Source of the DNA: an uncultured delta proteobacterium
GTDB lineage: Bacteria; Desulfobacterota; RBG-13-43-22
Reading direction: 5' to 3'
Assembly: GCA_963743305.1 (NCBI GenBank)
Contig: CAVUPH010000006.1
Location: 96,001 to 160,000 of the forward strand
DNA length: 64,000 bases
In this document: in pieces, positions 5,646 to 54,300 of the stretch
How the letters are laid out: each line of letters opens with the position of its first letter
Position numbering within the stretch: position 1 is the first letter of the stretch
Made by a program: the position numbers and the translations under genes
Notes under the pieces: model-generated
Seen by the model: only the letters and a program-made list of their open reading frames with translations
Databases searched by the model: none
Told to the model about the DNA's origin: nothing

Positions 5646-5892
5646 ACGGATTATTTATATAACTATATTAAATTACTATTAAATAATTTTTTCTTTCATC
5701 ATCCTCTAATCAGCATTATGTTAACATTTAACATCATTGACGTTAATCTGTTAACTGTAAGGGATTTTACCGCAATCTCCGATTTTGGCAAAATACCTTG
5801 GGCTCAAATAGTTTCTGAAAAATTTAGCGAAGGGAGAGGAGGGTTAAAAAGAAGTTAATAGGATGCCGCCCAGACGTTGTGTAGAAGACAGA

Positions 5893-5936
5893 GTTCTAAG
5901 AATTTGTCTCTAACTAAAAATGAATGCAAGAATCTA
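5893..5936. repeat. Partial copy of the 58-bp hairpin element
   Basis: gttctaagaatttgtctctaac...gcaagaatcta. Confidence 0.6.
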
Positions 5937-13176: not shown

Positions 13177-14142
13177 TTATTCCGCCCGGGCGGCGCGCAC
13201 CACCGCCGAGGTGGTCACCCCGAGGAACCGGGCCACGGCCGTCGCCGGAAACCCCAACTCGCCCACTGAGGCCCGACAAAACCCTCTTCGGGCTTCCGAG
13301 ACCTTCCGCATCCGGCTCCCGGAGCGGAGCTCCGTTTCGGTGATTCCCCGGTCCGCGGCGATTTCCCGGGCCAGGATTTCCAAATCTACGCCCGGACCTT
13401 TTCTTCTCAGAGTTTCCTTTTCCATCTCCGCGGACTCCGACCAGATCTGCTCTACAAAGTCCCCATCGCCCAGAACGCGATCATCGGCAGCCATCCGCAG
13501 GCCTTTCCTCCGCAGCGAAAGCACCTGGGACCAGCCCCCCAGGCTACGGATCAACCCGCCGCCGACCAGCTCCGGCCGCCGGCCTTGGTCCACTCCTTCG
13601 GCCACAAAAGCCTCATACCGCCGAACCGCCTCCTTGGACCTTCCGGCAAAATAGGCCAGGATCGTGCCGGTATTCTGCCAGTCCCGCTCCACCTGGCCCG
13701 TCAGTGCCGAGTGGCCGGACCAGGGAAATCGGCCCAAGGCCTCCAGGTCCGGGACCAGCCCGGCCCGGAGGGGATTCAAATGGATATAGCGGGTCAGTTC
13801 CAGCAGATAGAGGTCCTCCTGGCAGACGATCGACTTGTAGCGGTTCTGAAAGAGGTGGCCGCGCCGTTTGTGCCGCAGGTTGAAGTTGATGGCGTAGCCG
13901 GTCATCAGGCGCCGCATGCTCCGGGCCAGGGGCTCTTTTTCAGTTCGCACCAGCAGGTGAAAATGGTTGGGCATCAATGCCCAGGCGAATACGGACCATC
14001 TACCCGAACGGCACAACTCCGCCATCCGGTCGATGAAGTCCTCCCGGTCTCCTTTGGTCCTAAATATCTTACTGGTCTCGATCCCCCGGCCCATGACGTG
14101 ATGCAGGGTCCCGGGGGCATCCAGCCGCGGTTGCCTGGGCCT
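13177..14142 (-). mobile_element. REP-associated tyrosine (HUH/Y1) transposase, RAYT-like, with C-terminal HTH
   Basis: (R)PRQPRLDAPGTLHHVMGRG, LMPNHFHLL (HUH), GHLFQNRYKS, RYIHLNP, PWSGH. The expected ATG reads AGG at 14140-14142. Confidence 0.88.
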
Positions 14143-35488: not shown

Positions 35489-35758
35489 CTTGGTCGTGCT
35501 AGGCGGGGAGTTAGCGGTGCCCTGTACCCGAAATCCGCTTATGCGGGGCTGAATATCCTCTTGAGGACTTGAAATAGCCATGGTGATTACCTCTCTTGAA
35601 ATTGGGATTGGACGTTACGCAACAAACGATTATGAACCCCGTCAGGTCCGGGAGGAAGCAGCGGTAAATAATGCGGTTTGTGTCGTAACTGCCTCTAGTC
35701 TTTTGTTTCAGGCAGGGGACACCCTGGCTGTTGGTTCGAGAGAGGATGCACGGCCAAG
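35489..35758 (+). ncRNA. ffs: Signal recognition particle RNA, large bacterial type with Alu domain
   Basis: S-domain AACCCCGTCAGGTCCGGGAGGAAGCAGCGG; 5' CTTGGTCGTGC pairs with 3' GCACGGCCAAG; Alu-like GGCGGGGAG..CCCTGTACCCG. Confidence 0.92.
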
Positions 35759-46098: not shown

Positions 46099-46878
46099 TT
46101 ATTTATGCCCGGACGAGACCCTTTTGAGGGTCTCCCCCTCCAAATAATTGTCAATTTGCCGCTGAATCCACTCCTGAGAGGTCAGATAATACACTTTGGG
46201 TTGGCTTCCCAGTTTTTCCAGCAGGCGAAAGGCCCGGGGACTTTTGCTCAGCCTGGCCACCGCACTTTCGGGGTTTTGCAGGTTCCCGAAGGTTATGGCC
46301 TGGGTAGGGCAGGCCTCGGCGCAGGCCGTGTTATATTCACCCTCTTTCAGGTCCCGGCGCTCTTCCATAAAGGCCCGGTCTTTCGCCCGCTGATAGCGAT
46401 GATGGCAGAAAGTGCATTTATGGACCACTCCGCGCATGGCCACGGAAACGTCCGGATTCAGGTAGTTTTCCAGACCCTGAGGGAACACCGGGTCCCACCA
46501 GTGAAACAACCGGGCATGGTAGGGGCAGGCGGCCACACAGTACCGGCAACCGATGCAGCGGGGATAGATCTGGCTGACCACCCCTTGTTCATCAATCTTA
46601 GTGGCGTTGACCGGGCAGACCGAAACGCAGGGCGTATGGTTCTGGCAGTGCATACAGGGACGGGGGAAATAGGCTACCTTGGTCTTGGGAAAGGGCTTTC
46701 CGTTGTTCAAACGGTACAGCCGCATCCAGGTGCCCGTTCGCAGCTTGTCGGTCTCATCCGTTCGATAGGCGATATTATTTTCAGCCGAACAGGCGACGCC
46801 ACAAGCCCCACATCCGGTGCATCGGTCTAAGTCGATCACCATGCCATAGAGTTCTTTGCCGAGAGGAATTTCTTTCAT
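46099..46878 (-). CDS. qrcC: Quinone reductase complex iron-sulfur subunit
   Basis: CTGCGAC, CMHC..PCVSVCP, CIGCRYC..CP, KCTFC..ACAEACP. Confidence 0.93.
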   Translation of the reverse strand: MKEIPLGKELYGMVIDLDRCTGCGACGVACSAENNIAYRTDETDKLRTGTWMRLYRLNNGKPFPKTKVAYFPRPCMHCQNHTPCVSVCPVNATKIDEQGVVSQIYPRCIGCRYCVAACPYHARLFHWWDPVFPQGLENYLNPDVSVAMRGVVHKCTFCHHRYQRAKDRAFMEERRDLKEGEYNTACAEACPTQAITFGNLQNPESAVARLSKSPRAFRLLEKLGSQPKVYYLTSQEWIQRQIDNYLEGETLKRVSSGHK

Positions 46879-46888
46879 GGCTACCCTC

Positions 46889-46946
46889 TAGATTTTTACA
46901 TCCATTGTTCCGAGAATTTGTCTTTAACCATGGACGTAAAAATCTA
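46889..46946. repeat. 58-bp hairpin element, copy 1 (between qrcB and qrcC)
   Basis: TAGATTTTTACATCCATTGTT-ccgagaatttgtcttt-AACCATGGACGTAAAAATCTA. Confidence 0.9.
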
Positions 46947-46978
46947 AATTAAAAGAAGTTATTTTGAAATATTTTTGG

Positions 46979-49294
46979 CTAAATTTTTCTAATTTTCACT
47001 TTGGTGACCCAGGAGATCGGTAACCCGCTTGCCGGGTCAATAATATTATCCAGCAGCGGATAGGGATTCGCCCCACGATTTTTCAAAGTCGGATCAAAGG
47101 CCTCGTGCCCCATTCCCAGGGGAACGAAAATGACCTGAGGCATGGCCCCTTCAAACAATTGGACCCCCACCTTAATGCTCCCTCCCGCCGATTCCAGTGT
47201 CACTCGGTCTCCCTGCTTCAACCCGAACTTCTTGGCGGTAGTCGGGTGAAACTGGGCCATCAGGTCATTGGCTTTTAGAATTTCTTCGCCCAGGTACTTG
47301 GTCATGAAAGGGGGATTGGGGAAGTATCCGTTTTGGAGCAACATCAAGGACAGCGGCACCATCAAAAGCGGGCTCTCCCCTCCGGGATAATAAGAGAAGC
47401 TCAGATCAATTTTTTCCGGTTCCTGGCGGAGGGCGGCAGGATAGAGGTCGATCTTTCCCTGTCCCCCGACCCCGGCGCCTTCCAGATGATACCAGGTCCC
47501 TTCCCGGACCAGCCCTTCCCAGAATTTATCAAAAGATTCAAAAGAGGCGGAGCCGGACTTGCCGGCTTCCGACGGCGGGCTATCGCTCAGGCGGCCCTTC
47601 TTGGTCTCGAAAACGGTTTTGGCGCTCTGCTTAACCACGGCTTCCATATTTTCGAAGCTTAAGGCCTCCTGAACCGCTCCGCCCAGACCTTTGGCCAAGG
47701 CGATCAGTACCTCGCCCGGATTTCGGTTTCCGTGAAGGGGGGGCAATACCGGCTTGGCCAGGCCATAAACCGGAAAGGGCACCCCCGGGACGCCATAGGC
47801 GTCATCCCAGCGCTCCAGGAAGGTCGGAGCCGGCAGGATCAAGTCCGCTAATTGGGTGGTTTCATCATAGAAAGAGGAAAAACTGACAATATATGGGATG
47901 CGGGCCACGGCGGCTTTGATCGCCTCATCCCCCAACCTAAAGGCCGGGTTGGCCTCGTGAAGCATCAGGAGGTTGATCGGATAAGGTTTCTGTTGGGCCG
48001 CATTGCTGAAAAATTGGATATAGTTGGGTTGGCCCGCCGGAAACTTGGAACTCCCGATGCTGTCCAGCCGAGGTTGGGCCAGCCCTTTCTCAGCTATGCC
48101 GTCCAGCGACGCCTTAGGCCAAGCGGCGGTCAGTCCACCCTCGGACTTTAAGAAAACCCCGCCGCTGCGATTCAACGCCCCGATCAGAACGTTCAAGGTA
48201 AGGATGGCCGCACCCTCAGAAAAAGGAATGGCCAGGTCCCCTTTCCCTCTCCCCATCAGGGCGACCGCTTGTTTGGCCGAGGCGAATTCCTTGGCCAGTT
48301 TTTCAATCTCCTCGGGAGGCAAGCCGGTAATCTTGGCCACCTTGTCCGGAGTATATTTTTTATCCAGCACTTCTTTCAAACCTTCCAAACCTGAAGTCCC
48401 CGCCTGGATAGCCTCCCGGTTAACCCAGCCTTTGGAAATCATGATTTGGGCCAAGCCCCAGGCCAAAGACCCCTCGGTCCCTGGTTTTACCGCCACCCAT
48501 TCATCCGCCAGGGAGGCTGTCGTGGAGGCTAAGGGTTCCACCTGGACTAATTTGGCCCTTCCCGCCGGGGGATCTTTTCTCCATTCCCGGTAAGCCTGGC
48601 TCACCCAGGTCGGAGTTCCCCAACCGTCCAACAATCCCGCGCCGAAGCTGAGGATATATTTGGCCTGGGGCAGGTCATAGGCCCAGGAGGAACGGGCCCC
48701 CTGAAGGGAGGCCGTCACCATCTCTTCCATATCTCCCAGTCGCGGGGTTCGAATATAATTAGGGGAACCGTAGCTTCTCATGAATCGGGTCATCAACAGG
48801 GAAAGGCTTCCTTGTCCGCCGCGACCATCCAGAAGGGCCGCCGTGTGGGTCTGGTTATTCTGACGTAATTCCTTTAACCATTTGGTCAAATCACCATAGG
48901 CCTCTTCCCAGGAGACCGGCAACCAATCCCCTTTCCCCCGAGGACCGAAACGCTTCATCGGACCCTTCACGCGGATCTCTTCCTGGTACAGGTACTGCAA
49001 CCCGGACAAGCCCAACGGACATAGCCCGCCTTGATTTACCGGATGGTTCGGCTGGCCTTCGATTTTAACGGCCCGCTTACTTTCGATCAGCCGGACTTTG
49101 ATGCCGCAGGCCCCCGGACAAAGGAGGCAGATAGAATTCAGATAAGAGGATTCGCCGCTCTCGGGAATGGGGGCCCAACGCTGGCTCCATTTGGCCACTT
49201 CATCCATGGGCACCCAGGGCAGGGGTGAAACAATGGTCCCCACCGCGCCCCCGACGATAAACTTCAGGAAATCTCTGCGATCAATGGTTGGCAT
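46979..49294 (-). CDS. qrcB: Quinone reductase complex molybdopterin-oxidoreductase-like subunit
   Basis: Tat motif DRRDFLK; CX2CX3CX28C; ADLILPAPTFLERWDD. Confidence 0.92.
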   Translation of the reverse strand: MPTIDRRDFLKFIVGGAVGTIVSPLPWVPMDEVAKWSQRWAPIPESGESSYLNSICLLCPGACGIKVRLIESKRAVKIEGQPNHPVNQGGLCPLGLSGLQYLYQEEIRVKGPMKRFGPRGKGDWLPVSWEEAYGDLTKWLKELRQNNQTHTAALLDGRGGQGSLSLLMTRFMRSYGSPNYIRTPRLGDMEEMVTASLQGARSSWAYDLPQAKYILSFGAGLLDGWGTPTWVSQAYREWRKDPPAGRAKLVQVEPLASTTASLADEWVAVKPGTEGSLAWGLAQIMISKGWVNREAIQAGTSGLEGLKEVLDKKYTPDKVAKITGLPPEEIEKLAKEFASAKQAVALMGRGKGDLAIPFSEGAAILTLNVLIGALNRSGGVFLKSEGGLTAAWPKASLDGIAEKGLAQPRLDSIGSSKFPAGQPNYIQFFSNAAQQKPYPINLLMLHEANPAFRLGDEAIKAAVARIPYIVSFSSFYDETTQLADLILPAPTFLERWDDAYGVPGVPFPVYGLAKPVLPPLHGNRNPGEVLIALAKGLGGAVQEALSFENMEAVVKQSAKTVFETKKGRLSDSPPSEAGKSGSASFESFDKFWEGLVREGTWYHLEGAGVGGQGKIDLYPAALRQEPEKIDLSFSYYPGGESPLLMVPLSLMLLQNGYFPNPPFMTKYLGEEILKANDLMAQFHPTTAKKFGLKQGDRVTLESAGGSIKVGVQLFEGAMPQVIFVPLGMGHEAFDPTLKNRGANPYPLLDNIIDPASGLPISWVTKVKIRKI

Positions 49295-49344
49295 TTTCCT
49301 ATTCCTCGTGTTTTACCTGAGTTAGGGTCTGTTCAGGTTCCAAT

Positions 49345-49926
49345 TTATTTATGACATACAAAACAGGCGTTGCTTTTGCCTTTCTTTTGGTGACAGGCTT
49401 CACAGGTTTCCATCATCATCACTTCAGGAGCGTAGCCTGAAATCCACTTGTATTTATATACCGGGTTTTTATCGGTTTTGCCGCCCACCATCTTGTGGCA
49501 ATCCGTGCAGTTTTGTTTGGCCATTTTGACATGAGCCACGTGGGAGAAAAAAACGTTGTCGGGCTGCTGAGAGTAGATCAACCAGGAAATATTTCTATTC
49601 TCTTTCTTCAGTTGCTCCGCCAATTTAATAAAATCGGCCTCCTCCTTGGAACTGCCCTGAGCCGACTCGTGGCATTCCAGACATTTGGCCAGAGGCGGAA
49701 TACCGGCGAAGGTGCCATCCTTCCGGAAGGAATGGCAATCCTCACACTGCGCCCCGGCACCTCCCTCCCCATGCTTGAGATGGCTGAAATGCACGGGTTG
49801 GACCTTCTTGCTCTGGATAAGTCCCGGGAAGATCAGCCAGCCTAAAATCAAGGATGCCACGACCCCGACCCAGAAAAACATCCAGGTGCCCTTGGATTTT
49901 CCCTCTTTTTCCATCTCTTTTTCCAT
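49345..49926 (-). CDS. qrcA: Quinone reductase complex membrane-anchored multiheme cytochrome c (5 CxxCH)
   Basis: TM anchor; QPVHFSH; CEDCH, CLECH, CTDCH, CEACH, CFVCH; QPDNVFFSH. Confidence 0.93.
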   Translation of the reverse strand: MEKEMEKEGKSKGTWMFFWVGVVASLILGWLIFPGLIQSKKVQPVHFSHLKHGEGGAGAQCEDCHSFRKDGTFAGIPPLAKCLECHESAQGSSKEEADFIKLAEQLKKENRNISWLIYSQQPDNVFFSHVAHVKMAKQNCTDCHKMVGGKTDKNPVYKYKWISGYAPEVMMMETCEACHQKKGKSNACFVCHK

Positions 49927-50103
49927 ATTCCCTGTCCTAATTTTGTTATTTTATAAAAAAACCCGATCCGGTCTATAGCAATCCATAGTCCAGGTCGGGC
50001 CGATACGATATACGATAATGGATAACCCCCAGGGTTTCAATCGCAGGCATCTTTTATTGGCTATTTCGATTTGTTGGGAATTATAAAGAGTAAAAGTACT
50101 TCG

Positions 50104-50413
50104 TTAATACTTCCCCAACCCTTTTTTGTCAAGAAAAAATTCTTTTTTCAGGTCAAAGGCTTTGCGAATAATCGGGCCGGTTCCCGGAGTTAGCGCCAGG
50201 CGCTCAATACCCCCTAAAGGATAGAAAGCGGCTTCCAGGGCATCGCTTCCCCCCTTTAGCCGGCCAGCCACCACCCGGCAAAGGTAATCGATCAGCACAT
50301 AATGATAAAGGACGCGATCCTGTTCATCGACGAATTAATAAAACCCGGTCCTCCTCAAAAACAATGGCCCCGACCCCGATAAAGGGCCGTTCGGGGTAAC
50401 GACGGTCATCCAT
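50104..50413 (-). pseudogene. NUDIX hydrolase with internal deletion of the Nudix box
   Basis: MDDRRYPERPFIGVGAIVFEEDRVLLIRR* is joined out of frame to FVDEQDRVLYHYVLIDYLC..GSDALEA at TTCGTCG (50328-50334). Confidence 0.85.
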
Positions 50414-50431
50414 ATTTATTAACGGTTAACC

Positions 50432-51109
50432 TCATGGCCGGCATAGGCGGCAGGGGCTGAAGCCCTGGAGATAGGCGTCTTTCTTGTGCTTGAAAAGGAC
50501 CAGGTTCCTTACCGTTATCTTTTGTCCGACGAGGCAATTCCTTCGATGAAATTTCCTGGTGATCCGCTGACCAGTGTATTCCGATTCGGTTTCTTCCAGG
50601 GCCTTGCTCCAGATACCCCGCCGCTCGTCTATGGCTACCCGCTGCCACTTCAACAGGGCTTCGAACTTCTTCGTATTGGGCGCCTGGTAGAGCACCTGGG
50701 CCAAGCCTTTTTTGACCATCTCCCCGTTCACCCAAAGGCCGTTCTTCAAATACACGTGGGCCAACAGCCGCTGGTAGCGGTCCAGAAGCTCCACCTCATA
50801 TTCCAGCCGGATGTCCTGACCCCGAACCAGTTGACGATTGAAACGATGGGCCTCTTCGGCCAAGGGTTCGCCTTTCCCCGGCCCTCCCCGCTCCGGGGAA
50901 TCAATCCCCAGGTAGCGGACCCGCCGACCTTTATCCAGCGTAATCGAATCCCCATCCTCCACGCTGACCACCCGGCGCCACTCCGCCGGGGATTCGGACC
51001 AAGTCAAGCCGGCCAAAAAGAAAAAAACGGAGGGCAGAGAAATAATAAAGACCAGAAGACGGAGCGGGGCGATCGTTCGGTTAGACGAAAAATTCAGACC
51101 AGACGGCAT
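50432..51109 (-). CDS. Thermonuclease (SNase-like) with C-terminal Ada-like metal-binding domain
   Basis: VEDGDSI, VRYLGIDSPE, DRYQRLLA, GIW, FHRRNC..GFSPCRLCRP. Confidence 0.92.
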   Translation of the reverse strand: MPSGLNFSSNRTIAPLRLLVFIISLPSVFFFLAGLTWSESPAEWRRVVSVEDGDSITLDKGRRVRYLGIDSPERGGPGKGEPLAEEAHRFNRQLVRGQDIRLEYEVELLDRYQRLLAHVYLKNGLWVNGEMVKKGLAQVLYQAPNTKKFEALLKWQRVAIDERRGIWSKALEETESEYTGQRITRKFHRRNCLVGQKITVRNLVLFKHKKDAYLQGFSPCRLCRP

Positions 51110-51113
51110 TGGT

Positions 51114-52055
51114 TTAATTGTTTTGTTGGACTGCCTGGCGAAGGTATTCGATGGTCAGAACCAGGCCCTCTTCCAGCTCCACTTCCGGAAACCAGTCCAA
51201 ACGCTCCTGGGCTAAAGCAATATCCGGTTTCCGCTGAATGGGATCGTCCTGGGGCAGGGGTTTGAAAATAATCGGGGCCGATGAACCGGTCATGGCTTTC
51301 ACTTTTTCGGCCAGGGACAGTATGGTGAATTCCCGGGGGTTGCCCAGGTTGACCGGGCCGGGAAAGGCCTCCTGCTCCATCATGCCCTTCAGCCCCCGCA
51401 CCATATCGGAGATGTAACAAAAAGAACGGGTCTGCCGCCCATCGCCATACACTGTCAACGGTTCACCGCGCAGGGCCTGGATGATGAGATTGCTGACCAC
51501 CCGGCCGTCGTCCAGGGCCATCCTCGGGCCATAGGTATTGAAAATCCGTACAATTCGGATATCCACCCGGTGCTGGCGGTGATAATCCATCATTAAGGTC
51601 TCGGCGACCCGCTTTCCTTCGTCGTAACAGGCCCGTGGTCCGATGCAGTGGACGTTGCCCCAATAGGTTTCTTTCTGGGGATGCACGGCCGGGTCCCCAT
51701 AGACCTCCGAAGTGGAGGCCTGCAGGATTCGGGCCTTGACCCGTTTGGCCAATCCGAGCATGTTCAGAGTGCCCATGACGTTCGTTTTGACGGTTTTAAC
51801 CGGATTGAACTGGTAGTGGATGGGCGATGCCGGACAGGCCAGATTATAGATTTGATCCACCTCCAGGACGATGGGGTTGATAATATCATGTCGCAGCAAC
51901 TCAAAATGAGGATTATCCCGCAGATGAAGGATATTCTCCTTCGATCCGGTATAATAGTTATCCAGGCAAACTACATCATTTCCATCCTGGAGCAAAACTT
52001 CGCAGAGGTGACTGCCGATAAAGCCGGCCCCCCCCGTCACGAGAATTTTTTTCAT
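51114..52055 (-). CDS. uxs: UDP-glucuronate decarboxylase (UDP-xylose synthase)
   Basis: [42 protein letters not shown]. Confidence 0.95.
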
Positions 52056-52066
52056 GCCTTCCCCTT

Positions 52067-52123
52067 TAGGTGCTTATTCCATTGTTCTGAGAATTGGTCG
52101 CTAACAACGGAGGTAAGAATCTA
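52067..52123. repeat. 58-bp hairpin element, copy 2 (upstream of uxs)
   Basis: TAGGTGCTTATTCCATTGTT-ctgagaattggtcgct-AACAACGGAGGTAAGAATCTA. Confidence 0.85.
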
Positions 52124-52342
52124 CTATAAAAAACGTTCTTTAAAATCCTTTTTAGAGGTTTTTTATTACAGCCAAAAAAACTCGATTTTTTTTGGCTAGT
52201 CCGAAGATGATAGCAGTATTGGCATGAGTCACCCGATTTGTCAAGTCCGTCAACCATCCCAACTCATTGAAAGAAATAAAATTAGTCCTTTACCCCTTTC
52301 CAAATATATGCTACCGTTTGAGTTTCAAGAACAGATTCGAAT

Positions 52343-52657
52343 GATCAAGTTTGACGGACTCGCAAGAAGTCCGTCAGCAGCCCGAGCGCGATTAAGCGCC
52401 GGGCTGGGGTAGGGGTGGAACCATTTGAATTCACTTCAAATGGCGGGGGAGGGGAAGCCCTCCCCCGCCGAGCAGAAAGTCGTTTTTTGACTTTTTGCGA
52501 GGTCATCAAGTTTGATGGTTTGGCAAAAAGTCCCCTGGGCTCTCATTGCGAGGAGTGAAGCGACGAAGCAATCTCGTATTGTAGGCTAGTTACCAAAGAC
52601 GAGATTGCTTCGCTTCGCTCGCAATGACGGGTTCTTGGCCTTTTTGCGAGAGGCTCT
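52343..52657. repeat. Tandem MITE-like units (TTTGAYGG..GCAARAAGTC / GACTTTTTGCGAG) enclosing REP hairpins (CATTGCGAG..GAAGCAATCTC / GAGATTGCTTC..CGCAATGAC)
   Basis: Direct reading; the same REP pair recurs at 63761-63866. Confidence 0.85.
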
Positions 52658-52670
52658 GAGGAGGGACGTT

Positions 52671-53012
52671 TTGGCTGATAAAATACTCTACCCGGAAATG
52701 ATCGAACAATTGCCGGATATCGATATTCCCATCCCGGGGGTCCGGGGTAAACTCTTTCAGGGCGAGGGCCGGCAGGCCGTGTTCTTTTCCGTGGAGACCA
52801 CAGGGGAAATCCCTCCCCATCAGCACCAGGCCCAATGGGGGGTGGTGCTGGAAGGGGAGATGCAGATGACCATCGGCGGGGTTACTCAAAGGTACGAAAA
52901 GGGGGATTCCTATTTTATTCCCGCCGGCGTCACCCATTCGATTCAAATCCTTTCTCCCCTGAAGGCTCTGGATTTTTTTGATGAACCGGCCCGCTACCGG
53001 CCCAAACCCTAG
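52671..53012 (+). CDS. Cupin-domain protein
   Basis: IPPHQH..QWGVVLEG, GDSYFIPAGVTH; TTG start after GAGGAGG. Confidence 0.88.
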   Translation: MADKILYPEMIEQLPDIDIPIPGVRGKLFQGEGRQAVFFSVETTGEIPPHQHQAQWGVVLEGEMQMTIGGVTQRYEKGDSYFIPAGVTHSIQILSPLKALDFFDEPARYRPKP

Positions 53013-53044
53013 CCAAAAATATTTGAAAATTTTCTTTTTATCTT

Positions 53045-53102
53045 TAAATGTTTACCTCCATTGTTCTGAGAATTTGTCTCTAACAATAGAGGTAAACATT
53101 TA
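53045..53102. repeat. 58-bp hairpin element, copy 3 (upstream of the aminotransferase)
   Basis: TAAATGTTTACCTCCATTGTT-ctgagaatttgtctct-AACAATAGAGGTAAACATTTA. Confidence 0.9.
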
Positions 53103-53118
53103 GAGGAGGAGACCACCG

Positions 53119-54300
53119 ATGGCCATAGCTCAAAAAATAAAAAACTCCATGGAGCAGTCCTCCTGGATCCGAAAGATGTTTGAACAGGGGGCACTGCTCA
53201 AGGCCCAATACGGAGCCGATCAGGTCTGTGATTTCAGCCTGGGCAACCCGAACCTGGAACCGCCGCTGGTGGTCCATCAGGCCCTCATTAAAATCCTTCA
53301 GGAATCCCCGGCCGCCCTGCACGCCTACATGCCCAACGCCGGGTACCCGGAGACCCGGACCGCCGTGGCCGATTTTCTTTCCCGGGAGCACGGATTGCCG
53401 TTCACCCTCAAAGACATCATCATGACCTGCGGCGCTGCCGGGGCCATCAACGCCGTTTTAAAGGCGCTAATCAACCCTGGCGACGAAGTCATTATTTTAG
53501 CCCCCTATTTTGTCGAATACCTTTTCTATGTGGACAATTTCCAGGGCCAGCCCAAAATCGTTTCCACGAGGCCCGATTTCTTACCGGACCTTAAGGCTAT
53601 CCAGGAGGCCATTACCCCCCGGACCAAGGCGATCTTGATCAACTCTCCCAATAACCCTACCGGACGAGTCTATGGCCAAACGATTATCCGCGGTCTGGGA
53701 GATTTGCTGGCCGATTATTCACGAAAGGGGCAGGTGATCTATCTGCTGGCCGATGAACCCTACCGAAAAATCGTTTATGACGGCGTCCAGGTTCCAAGTG
53801 CCTTCCAGGCTTATAACGAAAGCATCGTGGTCACCTCTTATTCCAAAGATCTTTCCCTGCCGGGGGAGCGGATCGGTTTTCTAGCCGTGCACCCGCAAGC
53901 CCCTGATCGGGACGAATTGATTAATGCCCTGACCCTCACCAATCGCATACTGGGTTTTGTCAATGCCCCCGCTCTGATGCAGCGGGTGTTAGTCGATCTG
54001 CAGGGACAAACCGTGGACATTAACCTCTATCAAAGAAAACGCGACCTTTTCTGTGACGGACTCTCCCAGGCCGGCTATCAGTTCGATCGGCCCGAGGGGG
54101 CCTTTTATCTCTTCCCCCGCTCCCCCATTCCCGATGAGGTGGCCTTCGTCCAGGCCTTGCAGGAAGAGCGGATCCTGACCGTCCCTGGAAGGGGCTTTGG
54201 AGCCCCCGGCTATTTTCGGATCGCCTACTGTGTGGCCGACGAGGTGATCGAACGTTCCCTGCCGGGCTTTACCAGGGTCATGAAAAAATTCACCCCTTAG
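53119..54300 (+). CDS. PLP-dependent class I aminotransferase (aspartate aminotransferase-like)
   Basis: DFSLGNP, NSPNNPTG, ADEPY, SYSKDLSLPGERIG. Confidence 0.93.
   Translation: MAIAQKIKNSMEQSSWIRKMFEQGALLKAQYGADQVCDFSLGNPNLEPPLVVHQALIKILQESPAALHAYMPNAGYPETRTAVADFLSREHGLPFTLKDIIMTCGAAGAINAVLKALINPGDEVIILAPYFVEYLFYVDNFQGQPKIVSTRPDFLPDLKAIQEAITPRTKAILINSPNNPTGRVYGQTIIRGLGDLLADYSRKGQVIYLLADEPYRKIVYDGVQVPSAFQAYNESIVVTSYSKDLSLPGERIGFLAVHPQAPDRDELINALTLTNRILGFVNAPALMQRVLVDLQGQTVDINLYQRKRDLFCDGLSQAGYQFDRPEGAFYLFPRSPIPDEVAFVQALQEERILTVPGRGFGAPGYFRIAYCVADEVIERSLPGFTRVMKKFTP

Follow-up and report, generated by a model that had tools for sequence, protein, structure and literature searches.

A TA-bounded hairpin next to Shine-Dalgarno sequences is very likely the left module of a mobile intergenic repeat in an uncultured delta proteobacterium

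In a 64,000-nucleotide stretch of DNA from an uncultured delta proteobacterium (contig CAVUPH010000006.1, positions 96,001 to 160,000; hereafter the window), three TA-bounded hairpins of about 58 bp end directly against the Shine-Dalgarno (SD) sequences of three genes, one of them inside the qrc operon. The question raised by this locus is whether such an arrangement marks a regulatory element acting at ribosome-binding sites (RBSs) or the settling pattern of a mobile repeat. The original prediction, made from the letters of the window alone, combined both, proposing a tiny TA-targeting miniature inverted-repeat transposable element (MITE) co-opted as an mRNA processing, stability or translation element, or else a protein-bound cruciform. 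Analysis of the window, which is part of a 4.91-Mb, 43-contig assembly of 54.6% G+C (G000), together with related genomes, makes it very likely that the hairpin, here called H1, forms the left module of a mobile element of ~132-137 bp, non-coding and non-autonomous, that inserts at TA between genes.

Prints of 40 copies anchored on the loop reveal a composite of 132-137 bp, in which H1 is followed by an AT-rich spacer of ~45 nt and by a second AT-rich palindrome, H2, which reads AGCC-A5-TATTT-C-AAATA-T5-GGCT and ends in TA-G. H1 measures 58 bp with a 16-nt loop and H2 measures 29 bp; both are AT-rich and each is internally palindromic. Both termini of the composite read TA|G, and comparison of the left end (TA-GATTCTTAC...) with the reverse-complemented right end (TA-GCCAAAAAT...) gives only TA-G in common. 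Shorter forms consist of H1 with a truncated tail, of the left arm and loop fused to the end of the spacer, or of the tail alone; the composite decays through internal deletions, which leave H1 alone, the tail alone or a fusion. Of 19 copies in the sister-genus lineage, 17 are full and uniform composites, and the similarity between copies ends right after the terminal TA. All six frames of a full copy are interrupted by two or more stop codons.

Mobility is demonstrated by related genomes in which the same sites are empty. At the qrcB/qrcC junction, the congener G003 reads ...CCCTC-TA-AATTTT..., compared with ...CCCTC-TA-element-TA-AATTTT... in G000. This site is also empty in G005 and G007, and G002 carries a full-length form there. 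The sites of the second and third window copies are likewise empty in G003, with a single TA each. Clean empty sites with a single TA at all three window positions identify the composite as a TA-duplicating insertion, which bears out the part of the original prediction that invoked a small mobile element targeting TA. For the reverse comparison, the flanks of 32 G002 and 7 G003 copies were placed on G000, and 30 of the 39 had both flanks on one contig. Nine of these copies meet a shorter site in G000: two clean TA empty sites (L083, L092), one approximately clean (L077), three deletion derivatives (L074, L093, L102), two complex cases (L106, L111), and L096, which is not clean. Every clean comparison involves the composite and not H1 alone, so the mobile unit is the composite and not, as had been supposed, the 58-bp hairpin. 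The duplicated unit appears to be TA; TAG is possible, since G follows each TA in most copies.

At the site of the third window copy, G002 (L031/L036, G002:C28) carries, in place of the G000 element, a TA-bounded, 28-bp H2-like mini-palindrome together with ~200 bp of other repeat sequence, which indicates that the stop-codon TA at this position has been a landing site more than once.

In the window, copy 1 spans 46889-46981 (93 bp) and comprises H1 (46889-46946, 58 nt, with 21-nt arms and 2 mismatches) and a shortened tail (46947-46981). The tail consists of a shortened spacer and the right half of H2, corresponding to a ~40-bp internal deletion relative to G002. On the minus strand, its terminal CTA (46979-46981) reads as the TAG that stops qrcB, and the element fills the qrcB-qrcC gap except for 10 bases that hold the SD; the left TA adjoins this sequence (TA|GAGGG, minus strand), with the qrcC start codon at 46876-46878. 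Copy 2 (52067-52198) is a full unit, with a 57-nt H1 (52067-52123) whose left arm is the variant TAGGTGCTTATTCC, followed by spacer and H2 (52124-52198; H2 palindrome 52170-52197, terminal TA 52197-52198). Its TA adjoins the SD of a sugar dehydratase gene of the short-chain dehydrogenase/reductase (SDR) type (TA|AAGGGG, minus strand, start 52053-52055). The name uxs given earlier to this gene could not be upheld, as the product matches only generic SDR nucleotide-sugar dehydratase models, under their cut-offs. Copy 3 (53010-53102) is a shortened unit in reverse orientation: the shortened H2 and spacer occupy 53010-53044, where TAG at 53010-53012 is the stop of an upstream 113-aa open reading frame (ORF; 52671-53012), and H1 (53045-53102, 58 nt) has its loop flipped relative to the tail of the same copy. 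GAGGAGG comes immediately after the terminal TA, and an aminotransferase start codon follows at 53119. A partial H1 at approximately 5890-5936 retains model positions 16-58, that is, the loop and a degenerate right arm, and lies between convergent genes.

All four of these hairpins, as first reported at 46889, 52067 and 53045 and in partial form near 5893, are real: allowing up to 3 mismatches, 4 matches to the loop motif are found in the window where 0.03 are expected, and none of 100 shuffles gave 4. The four loop motifs all lie on the plus strand, although the element orientations are opposite. The genes for QrcA-D and for a pyridoxal phosphate (PLP) aminotransferase flank the hairpins, and all of these products exceed their NCBIfam cut-offs.

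Between copy 2 and the 113-aa ORF, at 52351-52510, lies another repeat (~158 bp) that is unrelated to the first and has terminal inverted repeats in a classical MITE shape. It gives 47 BLAST matches in G000 and is present in dozens of copies, at 80-97% identity, in G001-G003.

The element forms a sizeable family of narrow distribution. Genome-wide, G000 contains 40 matches to the loop motif; nhmmer profiles (E <=0.01) return 44 matches to H1 and 35 to the tail, together making up 61 loci once merged. None of the 61 falls within a called gene, genes being called here with a crude codon-usage caller of our own (4,790 genes, 82% coding). A 32-nt core of H1 was then searched in 41 genomes with up to 3 mismatches, the reversed pattern serving as control. 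The core was found in 7 of the 41, and the control gave 0 throughout. All four genomes of the own genus hold it, counting G000 itself (G000, 23 copies; G001, 12; G002, 32; G003, 7), as do both genomes of the sister genus (G004, 4; G007, 35), and a single copy occurs in G013, the one matching genome among 14 of a third genus. The 34 others, with 0 copies, comprise 13 of the third genus, one of a fourth genus of the same family and 20 of other families. An exact-match scan of a species-representative collection retrieved 29 stretches, all in four metagenome-assembled genomes (MAGs) of uncultured or unclassified Deltaproteobacteria. Among public sequencing runs, the best match contained 0.24 of the sampled words; four runs (one of DNA and three metatranscriptomes, all as contigs) yielded short pieces without joints, and in the RNA runs the element is bridged by no contig. 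Among the papers listed by a full-text search on MITEs, intergenic repeats and sulfate reducers, none describes such an element, which does not by itself show the family to be unpublished.

The placement of the 61 loci was compared with that of 43,056 intergenic or stop-codon TA sites and, as a second null, with sites in a TTAG/CTAA context. An end of the element lies in a stop codon at 20 of the 61 loci (p 4e-10), compared with 6.2% of all TA sites and 12% of TTAG/CTAA sites. An end lies within 20 nt of a start codon at 14 loci (p 0.001; 9.3% and 10%, respectively) and within 30 nt at 22 (14.2% and 15.6%). Counted by end, a stop codon is overlapped by 11 of 35 intact outer ends of H1 and by 6 of 32 intact ends of H2, and 4 of the former lie within 22 nt, and 5 of the latter within 17 nt, of a start. 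The observation that the terminal TA runs into the SD of the next gene is accurate for all three window copies, and it does not extend to the family, in which 4 of 35 H1 outer ends are near a start as against 11 of 35 on a stop. By gene context, 39 loci are co-directional, 12 divergent and 10 convergent. The loop points with transcription in 16 cases and against it in 11, and the tail is evenly split (11:11). With 14 of 61 loci near starts, 10 of 61 between convergent genes and a random orientation, a dedicated role at the RBS is not supported.

The empty sites bear on this proximity. The SDs next to all three window copies are already present in the empty G003 sites and are therefore supplied by the host genes, not by the element. 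Furthermore, with TA|G at both termini, an insertion whose target TA belongs to a TAA or TAG stop codon would restore an in-frame TAG in either orientation. The TA of the qrcB stop codon is completed by the first G of the element in G000 and, where the site is empty in G003, by the G that begins the SD. Insertions would survive only in the few non-coding bases between genes, a constraint that would place many copies on stop codons or directly 5' of pre-existing SDs. If survival in the minimal non-coding space between genes is what the family has in common, its tightest examples are the three copies in the window.

The compensatory changes in the arms, also noted originally, are genuine. They were examined in 42 distinct full 58-mers (58 copies, from G000 and relatives), in which the copies are related by descent and the cells are not independent. 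Of the H1 arm cells, 92.6% are Watson-Crick paired, and double changes occur at 12 of 25 pairs (44 cells), for example at pair 7-52 (C-G 26, T-A 11) and pair 13-46 (T-A 25, G-C 10). None of 1000 partner shuffles reaches the observed values, and slid pairings are 24-32% paired. H2 is compensated in the same manner between lineages (AGCC..GGCT vs AACC..GGTT).

At the qrc site, the G000 and G002 orthologues have the same arms but a 16-nt loop running in opposite directions. The loop direction differs in 4 of 12 orthologous pairs, corresponding to 3 of 11 distinct loci (C20:21902, C6:74338 and C6:142889), and the flanks of these pairs are 91-98% identical, which indicates that loop inversion is fast. 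Within G000, the relative direction of loop and tail is the usual one at 18 composite or fused loci and opposite at 2, including window copy 3. An excerpt of PMC8604942 describes template switching between inverted repeats, which homogenises the arms and inverts the spacer, and a passage of PMC8794818 describes how the same process creates and maintains RNA hairpins through apparent compensatory substitutions. The inversion of the 16-nt loop and the paired arm changes seen here resemble these cases, and, as judged from sequence comparison, they fit hairpin template switching. In the portions cited, both reports concern yeast and other genomes and not bacterial mobile repeats, and we infer the mechanism for the present family. 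The arms would be kept complementary mainly by hairpin-templated correction, that is, by replication template switching from one arm to the other, and the same switching would invert the loop; selection for a compact, self-contained mRNA fold may add to the arm pairing. Template switching would thus be a mutational route to the covariation, for which selection on structure would not be required.

A related observation concerns copy 2, where G002 has the canonical left arm in place of the G000 variant TAGGTGCTTATTCC. This same left-arm variant (TAGGTGCTTAT...) recurs in G000 at C6:148067 (window 52067), C6:182168, C33:104403 and C43:29904. Together, the recurrence and the canonical arm of G002 suggest exchange between copies or a sub-family rather than independent mutation.

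Several observations weigh against the reading of the family as a mobile repeat moved by a TA-duplicating enzyme and shaped by template switching. In the filled/empty pair at L096, 10 nt are missing in G000 and no clean TA is found. End-to-end comparison of copies gives no terminal inverted repeats of the composite. On the H2 side, the flank after TA has G at +1 in 30 of 32 copies and T at +5 in 28 of 32 (in the window, the flanks at 52199-52204 and 53004-53009); this asymmetry is unusual for TA-targeting DDE elements. The flank bases are also present in the empty sites and hence belong to the target. No partner transposase was found at the transposase loci searched, as detailed below, in genomes that are incomplete MAGs, where insertion sequences assemble poorly; G007 (93% complete, 400 contigs), which holds the most uniform copies, lacks a match to DDE_3. 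The ends are 2.5-fold enriched within 20 nt of start codons, a value inflated by the null of the crude caller: this caller misses genes, so the intergenic null is too dilute, and the start-codon enrichment may largely disappear under proper annotation, while the stop-codon enrichment probably survives. Finally, in 14 G000 copies with co-directional neighbours, the transition mismatches on the sense strand comprise 14 G·U and 2 A·C (p 0.004), and this bias of 14 in 16 points to some RNA-level selection. In relatives, with cruder strand calls, the corresponding ratio is 7:6 and the bias is not reproduced, so that RNA-level selection is no more than a possibility.

These last points are those on which a co-opted mRNA element would rest, namely a processing site, stabiliser or translation tuner, acting for example on the QrcB:QrcC ratio, with pairing kept by selection on the RNA. 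Copies 1 and 3 form strong predicted hairpins directly 5' of the SD (-22.6 kcal/mol, z -7.4, and -26.4 kcal/mol, z -8.2, respectively), and the full element is predicted to fold into two separate hairpins on either strand (~-50 kcal/mol, z ~-9). The covariation at 12 of 25 pairs, the G·U excess in G000 and the enrichment of ends within 20-30 nt of start codons are consistent with such a role, and Correia elements have been proposed as RNase III targets, according to a section of PMC2229807. Against it, copy 2, with its degraded left arm, is barely structured on the sense strand (-11.1 kcal/mol, z -2.4; z -0.58 in context), and the same three genes run without the element in G003. The loop flips freely, orientation is random with respect to transcription, convergent contexts are present among the 61 loci, few H1 ends lie near a start codon, and the G·U bias is not seen in relatives. 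A co-opted RNA element is accordingly judged quite improbable. Under the preferred reading, that of an inserted mobile repeat, the transcribed copies would be tolerated passengers and not a dedicated regulatory device, although they would probably alter qrcB-qrcC coupling or the structure of 5' untranslated regions (UTRs).

Searches for known RNA or transcription signals gave the following results. In Rfam 15, no family matches the element at gathering score; at E <=1, the hairpin matched just miRNA-precursor models, far under their cut-offs. The only window match above gathering score is the bacterial large signal recognition particle (SRP) RNA (RF01854, 160 bits) at 35494-35753. An intrinsic terminator is not indicated, as 0 of 10 terminator-like sites in 46700-53300 coincide with H1 or H2, the stems of which are AT-rich. 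A sigma-70 scan detected no promoter-like site within the three window copies. A promoter-like site lies at 52244-52215 on the minus strand, just outside copy 2, and from it the whole copy 2 element would be 5' UTR. A sigma-54 reading of the H2-flank motif was rejected, because the spacing, compared by eye, does not fit.

The same palindromes could in principle be bound by protein, as an operator, a cruciform or a site for a nucleoid protein that lies upstream of genes and controls transcription. Long, near-perfect palindromes in AT-rich intergenic DNA, some of them (12 of 61 loci) in divergent promoter regions, are what this proposal would lead one to expect. Copies nevertheless lie inside operons, on stop codons and between convergent genes, and they are present or absent between congeners with TA-bounded junctions. 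Moreover, compensated arm changes would alter a protein-recognition sequence, and no regulator is linked to the copies. This explanation is therefore extremely unlikely.

With the composite taken as a mobile repeat, the remaining issue is the enzyme that moves it. A TA-duplicating DDE transposase acting in trans would be the default guess; TA on both sides suggests an enzyme of the IS630/Tc1-mariner type, as proposed for RUP in the relevant part of PMC2229807. The possibility that the repeat is simply the end pair of an IS630-type element, which by its own terms would have refuted the original prediction, was discarded for the IS630-type element of G000, since its two identical copies have unrelated ends. 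No H1 or tail module (E <=1) was found at 8 Y1_Tnp loci or at 5 DDE_3 loci of G000, G002 and G003, and no similar ends at 2 DDE_Tnp_1 loci. PF13586 and PF13359 have no match in the own genome (90% complete), and DDE_3 has none in G001, G004 and G007, which are incomplete MAGs. Partial copies were also considered as the ends of full-length insertion sequences and rejected: no transposase-like ORF lies beside 8 partial copies, which are followed directly by an RBS and host genes.

Alternatively, the mover may not be a DDE enzyme at all, but one that acts on a hairpin folded from single-stranded DNA or on a short crossover core, such as an HUH transposase of the Y1 type (derived from IS200/IS605 or similar to REP/RAYT) or a serine or other TA-core recombinase, the flanking TA then being a shared cleavage or crossover site. 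The composite has two terminal palindromes without terminal inverted repeats, and its H2 flank is asymmetric and orientation-specific; H1 ends in TCTA and, read on the other strand, C-TA stands ahead of H2. Immediately before the TA on the H1 side, T is found in 23 of 35 G000 copies and in 16 of 17 in the sister lineage. Asymmetry of the target combined with a fixed orientation is more usual for hairpin-guided or site-specific enzymes. Furthermore, G000 contains 10 Y1_Tnp matches as against one IS630 type with unrelated ends, and G007 combines 35 copies with no DDE_3 match. The distribution of Y1 genes does not follow that of the element, however: Y1_Tnp is found in 12 of 12 family genomes, including those that lack the element, no co-occurrence is seen across 21 genomes, and G003, G004 and G007, all of which hold the element, have no canonical IS200-like gene. 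The hairpins include the termini and are not subterminal, TA is found on both sides, and no H1 or H2 module lies near any of the 8 Y1_Tnp loci. IS200/IS605 elements insert with a replication-strand bias. Such a bias relative to GC skew is absent here, tail orientation by skew sign being 9/8/7/6 and loop orientation 13/10/9/9 (Fisher p 0.54), with the skew of MAG contigs serving as a rough proxy. A non-DDE mover is thus possible but unlikely.

An apparent strand bias of the loop by contig (C6, 6+/1-; C14, 0/4; C20, 0/4) was followed up and dismissed, as it has no association with GC skew or transcription. One of the 10 Y1_Tnp matches of G000 is in the window, where a 337-aa open frame with this domain (PF01797) lies at 13780-14100 on the minus strand; Y1_Tnp-type proteins of 320-350 aa occur in all 12 other same-family genomes searched. 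A third repeat, a GC-rich palindrome with the core ...TTGCTTCG..GCTTC... and its complement, gives ~50 matches per strand pattern, for example in the flanks of C32:15641 and C33:133518 and at loci L082, L094, L104 and L111. It has a REP-like look, is often found near H1/H2 copies, and could be a substrate of the Y1 transposases.

A more far-reaching combination of these features can also be formulated. The family would be a distinct two-hairpin mobile repeat without terminal inverted repeats, inserted, always in one orientation, into T-TA-G-N3-TT by an HUH enzyme or site-specific recombinase. Evolution would have shaped its ends to rebuild TAG, loop inversion and arm correction would be frequent in H1, and selection would have turned some copies, including that inside qrcABCD, into mRNA structures that set downstream translation. 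As a whole, this scenario is considered decidedly doubtful.

The outcome turns what appeared to be an RBS-associated regulatory hairpin into a documented insertion polymorphism, in which the same three genes occur with and without the element in congeners. This also provides a natural experiment, in which 93 bp of structured insert between qrcB and qrcC could be examined for its influence on coupling within the operon that encodes the menaquinone reductase of an uncultured sulfate reducer. Small mobile repeats gather on stop codons and on TAs proximal to SDs, probably the only tolerated targets. Likewise, because the loop flips between orthologues, covariation within a hairpin is not necessarily a sign of RNA-level selection. 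In annotation, the 61-locus family and the two other repeat families account for much of the AT-rich intergenic sequence in these MAGs. The flipping of the loop, the ends that rebuild stop codons and the asymmetry of the target deserve specialist attention.

Compared with known systems, the element behaves as a bacterial MITE-like repeat of the Correia, RUP or ERIC kind and not as a proven regulator. Of the features that Delihas summarises for MITEs in the part of PMC2229807 drawn on here, the composite has a length below 200 bp, a non-coding sequence, many copies, a target-site duplication and a predicted stem-loop transcript; terminal inverted repeats at the ends are lacking. As an IS630/Tc1-mariner-derived MITE, it would have the expected TA target duplication, with ends unmatched to the IS630-type element. 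In RUP of Streptococcus pneumoniae the terminal repeats match those of the partner IS630-Spn1, whereas the only IS630-type element found here has unrelated ends. As regards IS200/IS605 or REP/RAYT systems, the composite has two terminal palindromes and an asymmetric flank, but its hairpins include the termini and TA stands on both sides. REP, BIME and REPIN sequences with their RAYT (Y1) enzymes are similar in being mosaics of palindromic intergenic modules in several combinations, and Y1 genes are present in the genome; they differ in that no module lies beside the Y1_Tnp genes, and a fixed, TA-bounded insertion of 135 bp is not REP-like. REP units are GC-rich 20-40-mers, unlike the AT-rich units of 58 and 29 bp described here.

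As the excerpt of PMC2229807 describes them, the Correia/NEMIS elements of Neisseria are ~107-155 bp long, non-coding and multicopy, with TA termini and a TA duplication; they also form long stem-loops in transcripts, lie near genes and occur as size variants produced by internal deletion, all of which resembles the present family. Their ends are paired through 24-bp terminal inverted repeats, in contrast to the composite, which, compared by description, has unrelated ends that each form their own palindrome. The architecture is closest to the CIR elements of Caulobacter and Brucella, which in the same excerpt consist of two arms and a linker: they share the two long stem-loops, the absence of terminal inverted repeats, the TA termini, the strictly intergenic position and the stops in all frames. 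CIR elements carry GANTC methylation sites in the loop and are described there as of unproven mobility, whereas the composite is mobile by its empty sites; the resemblance is one of architecture, with no sign of shared ancestry.

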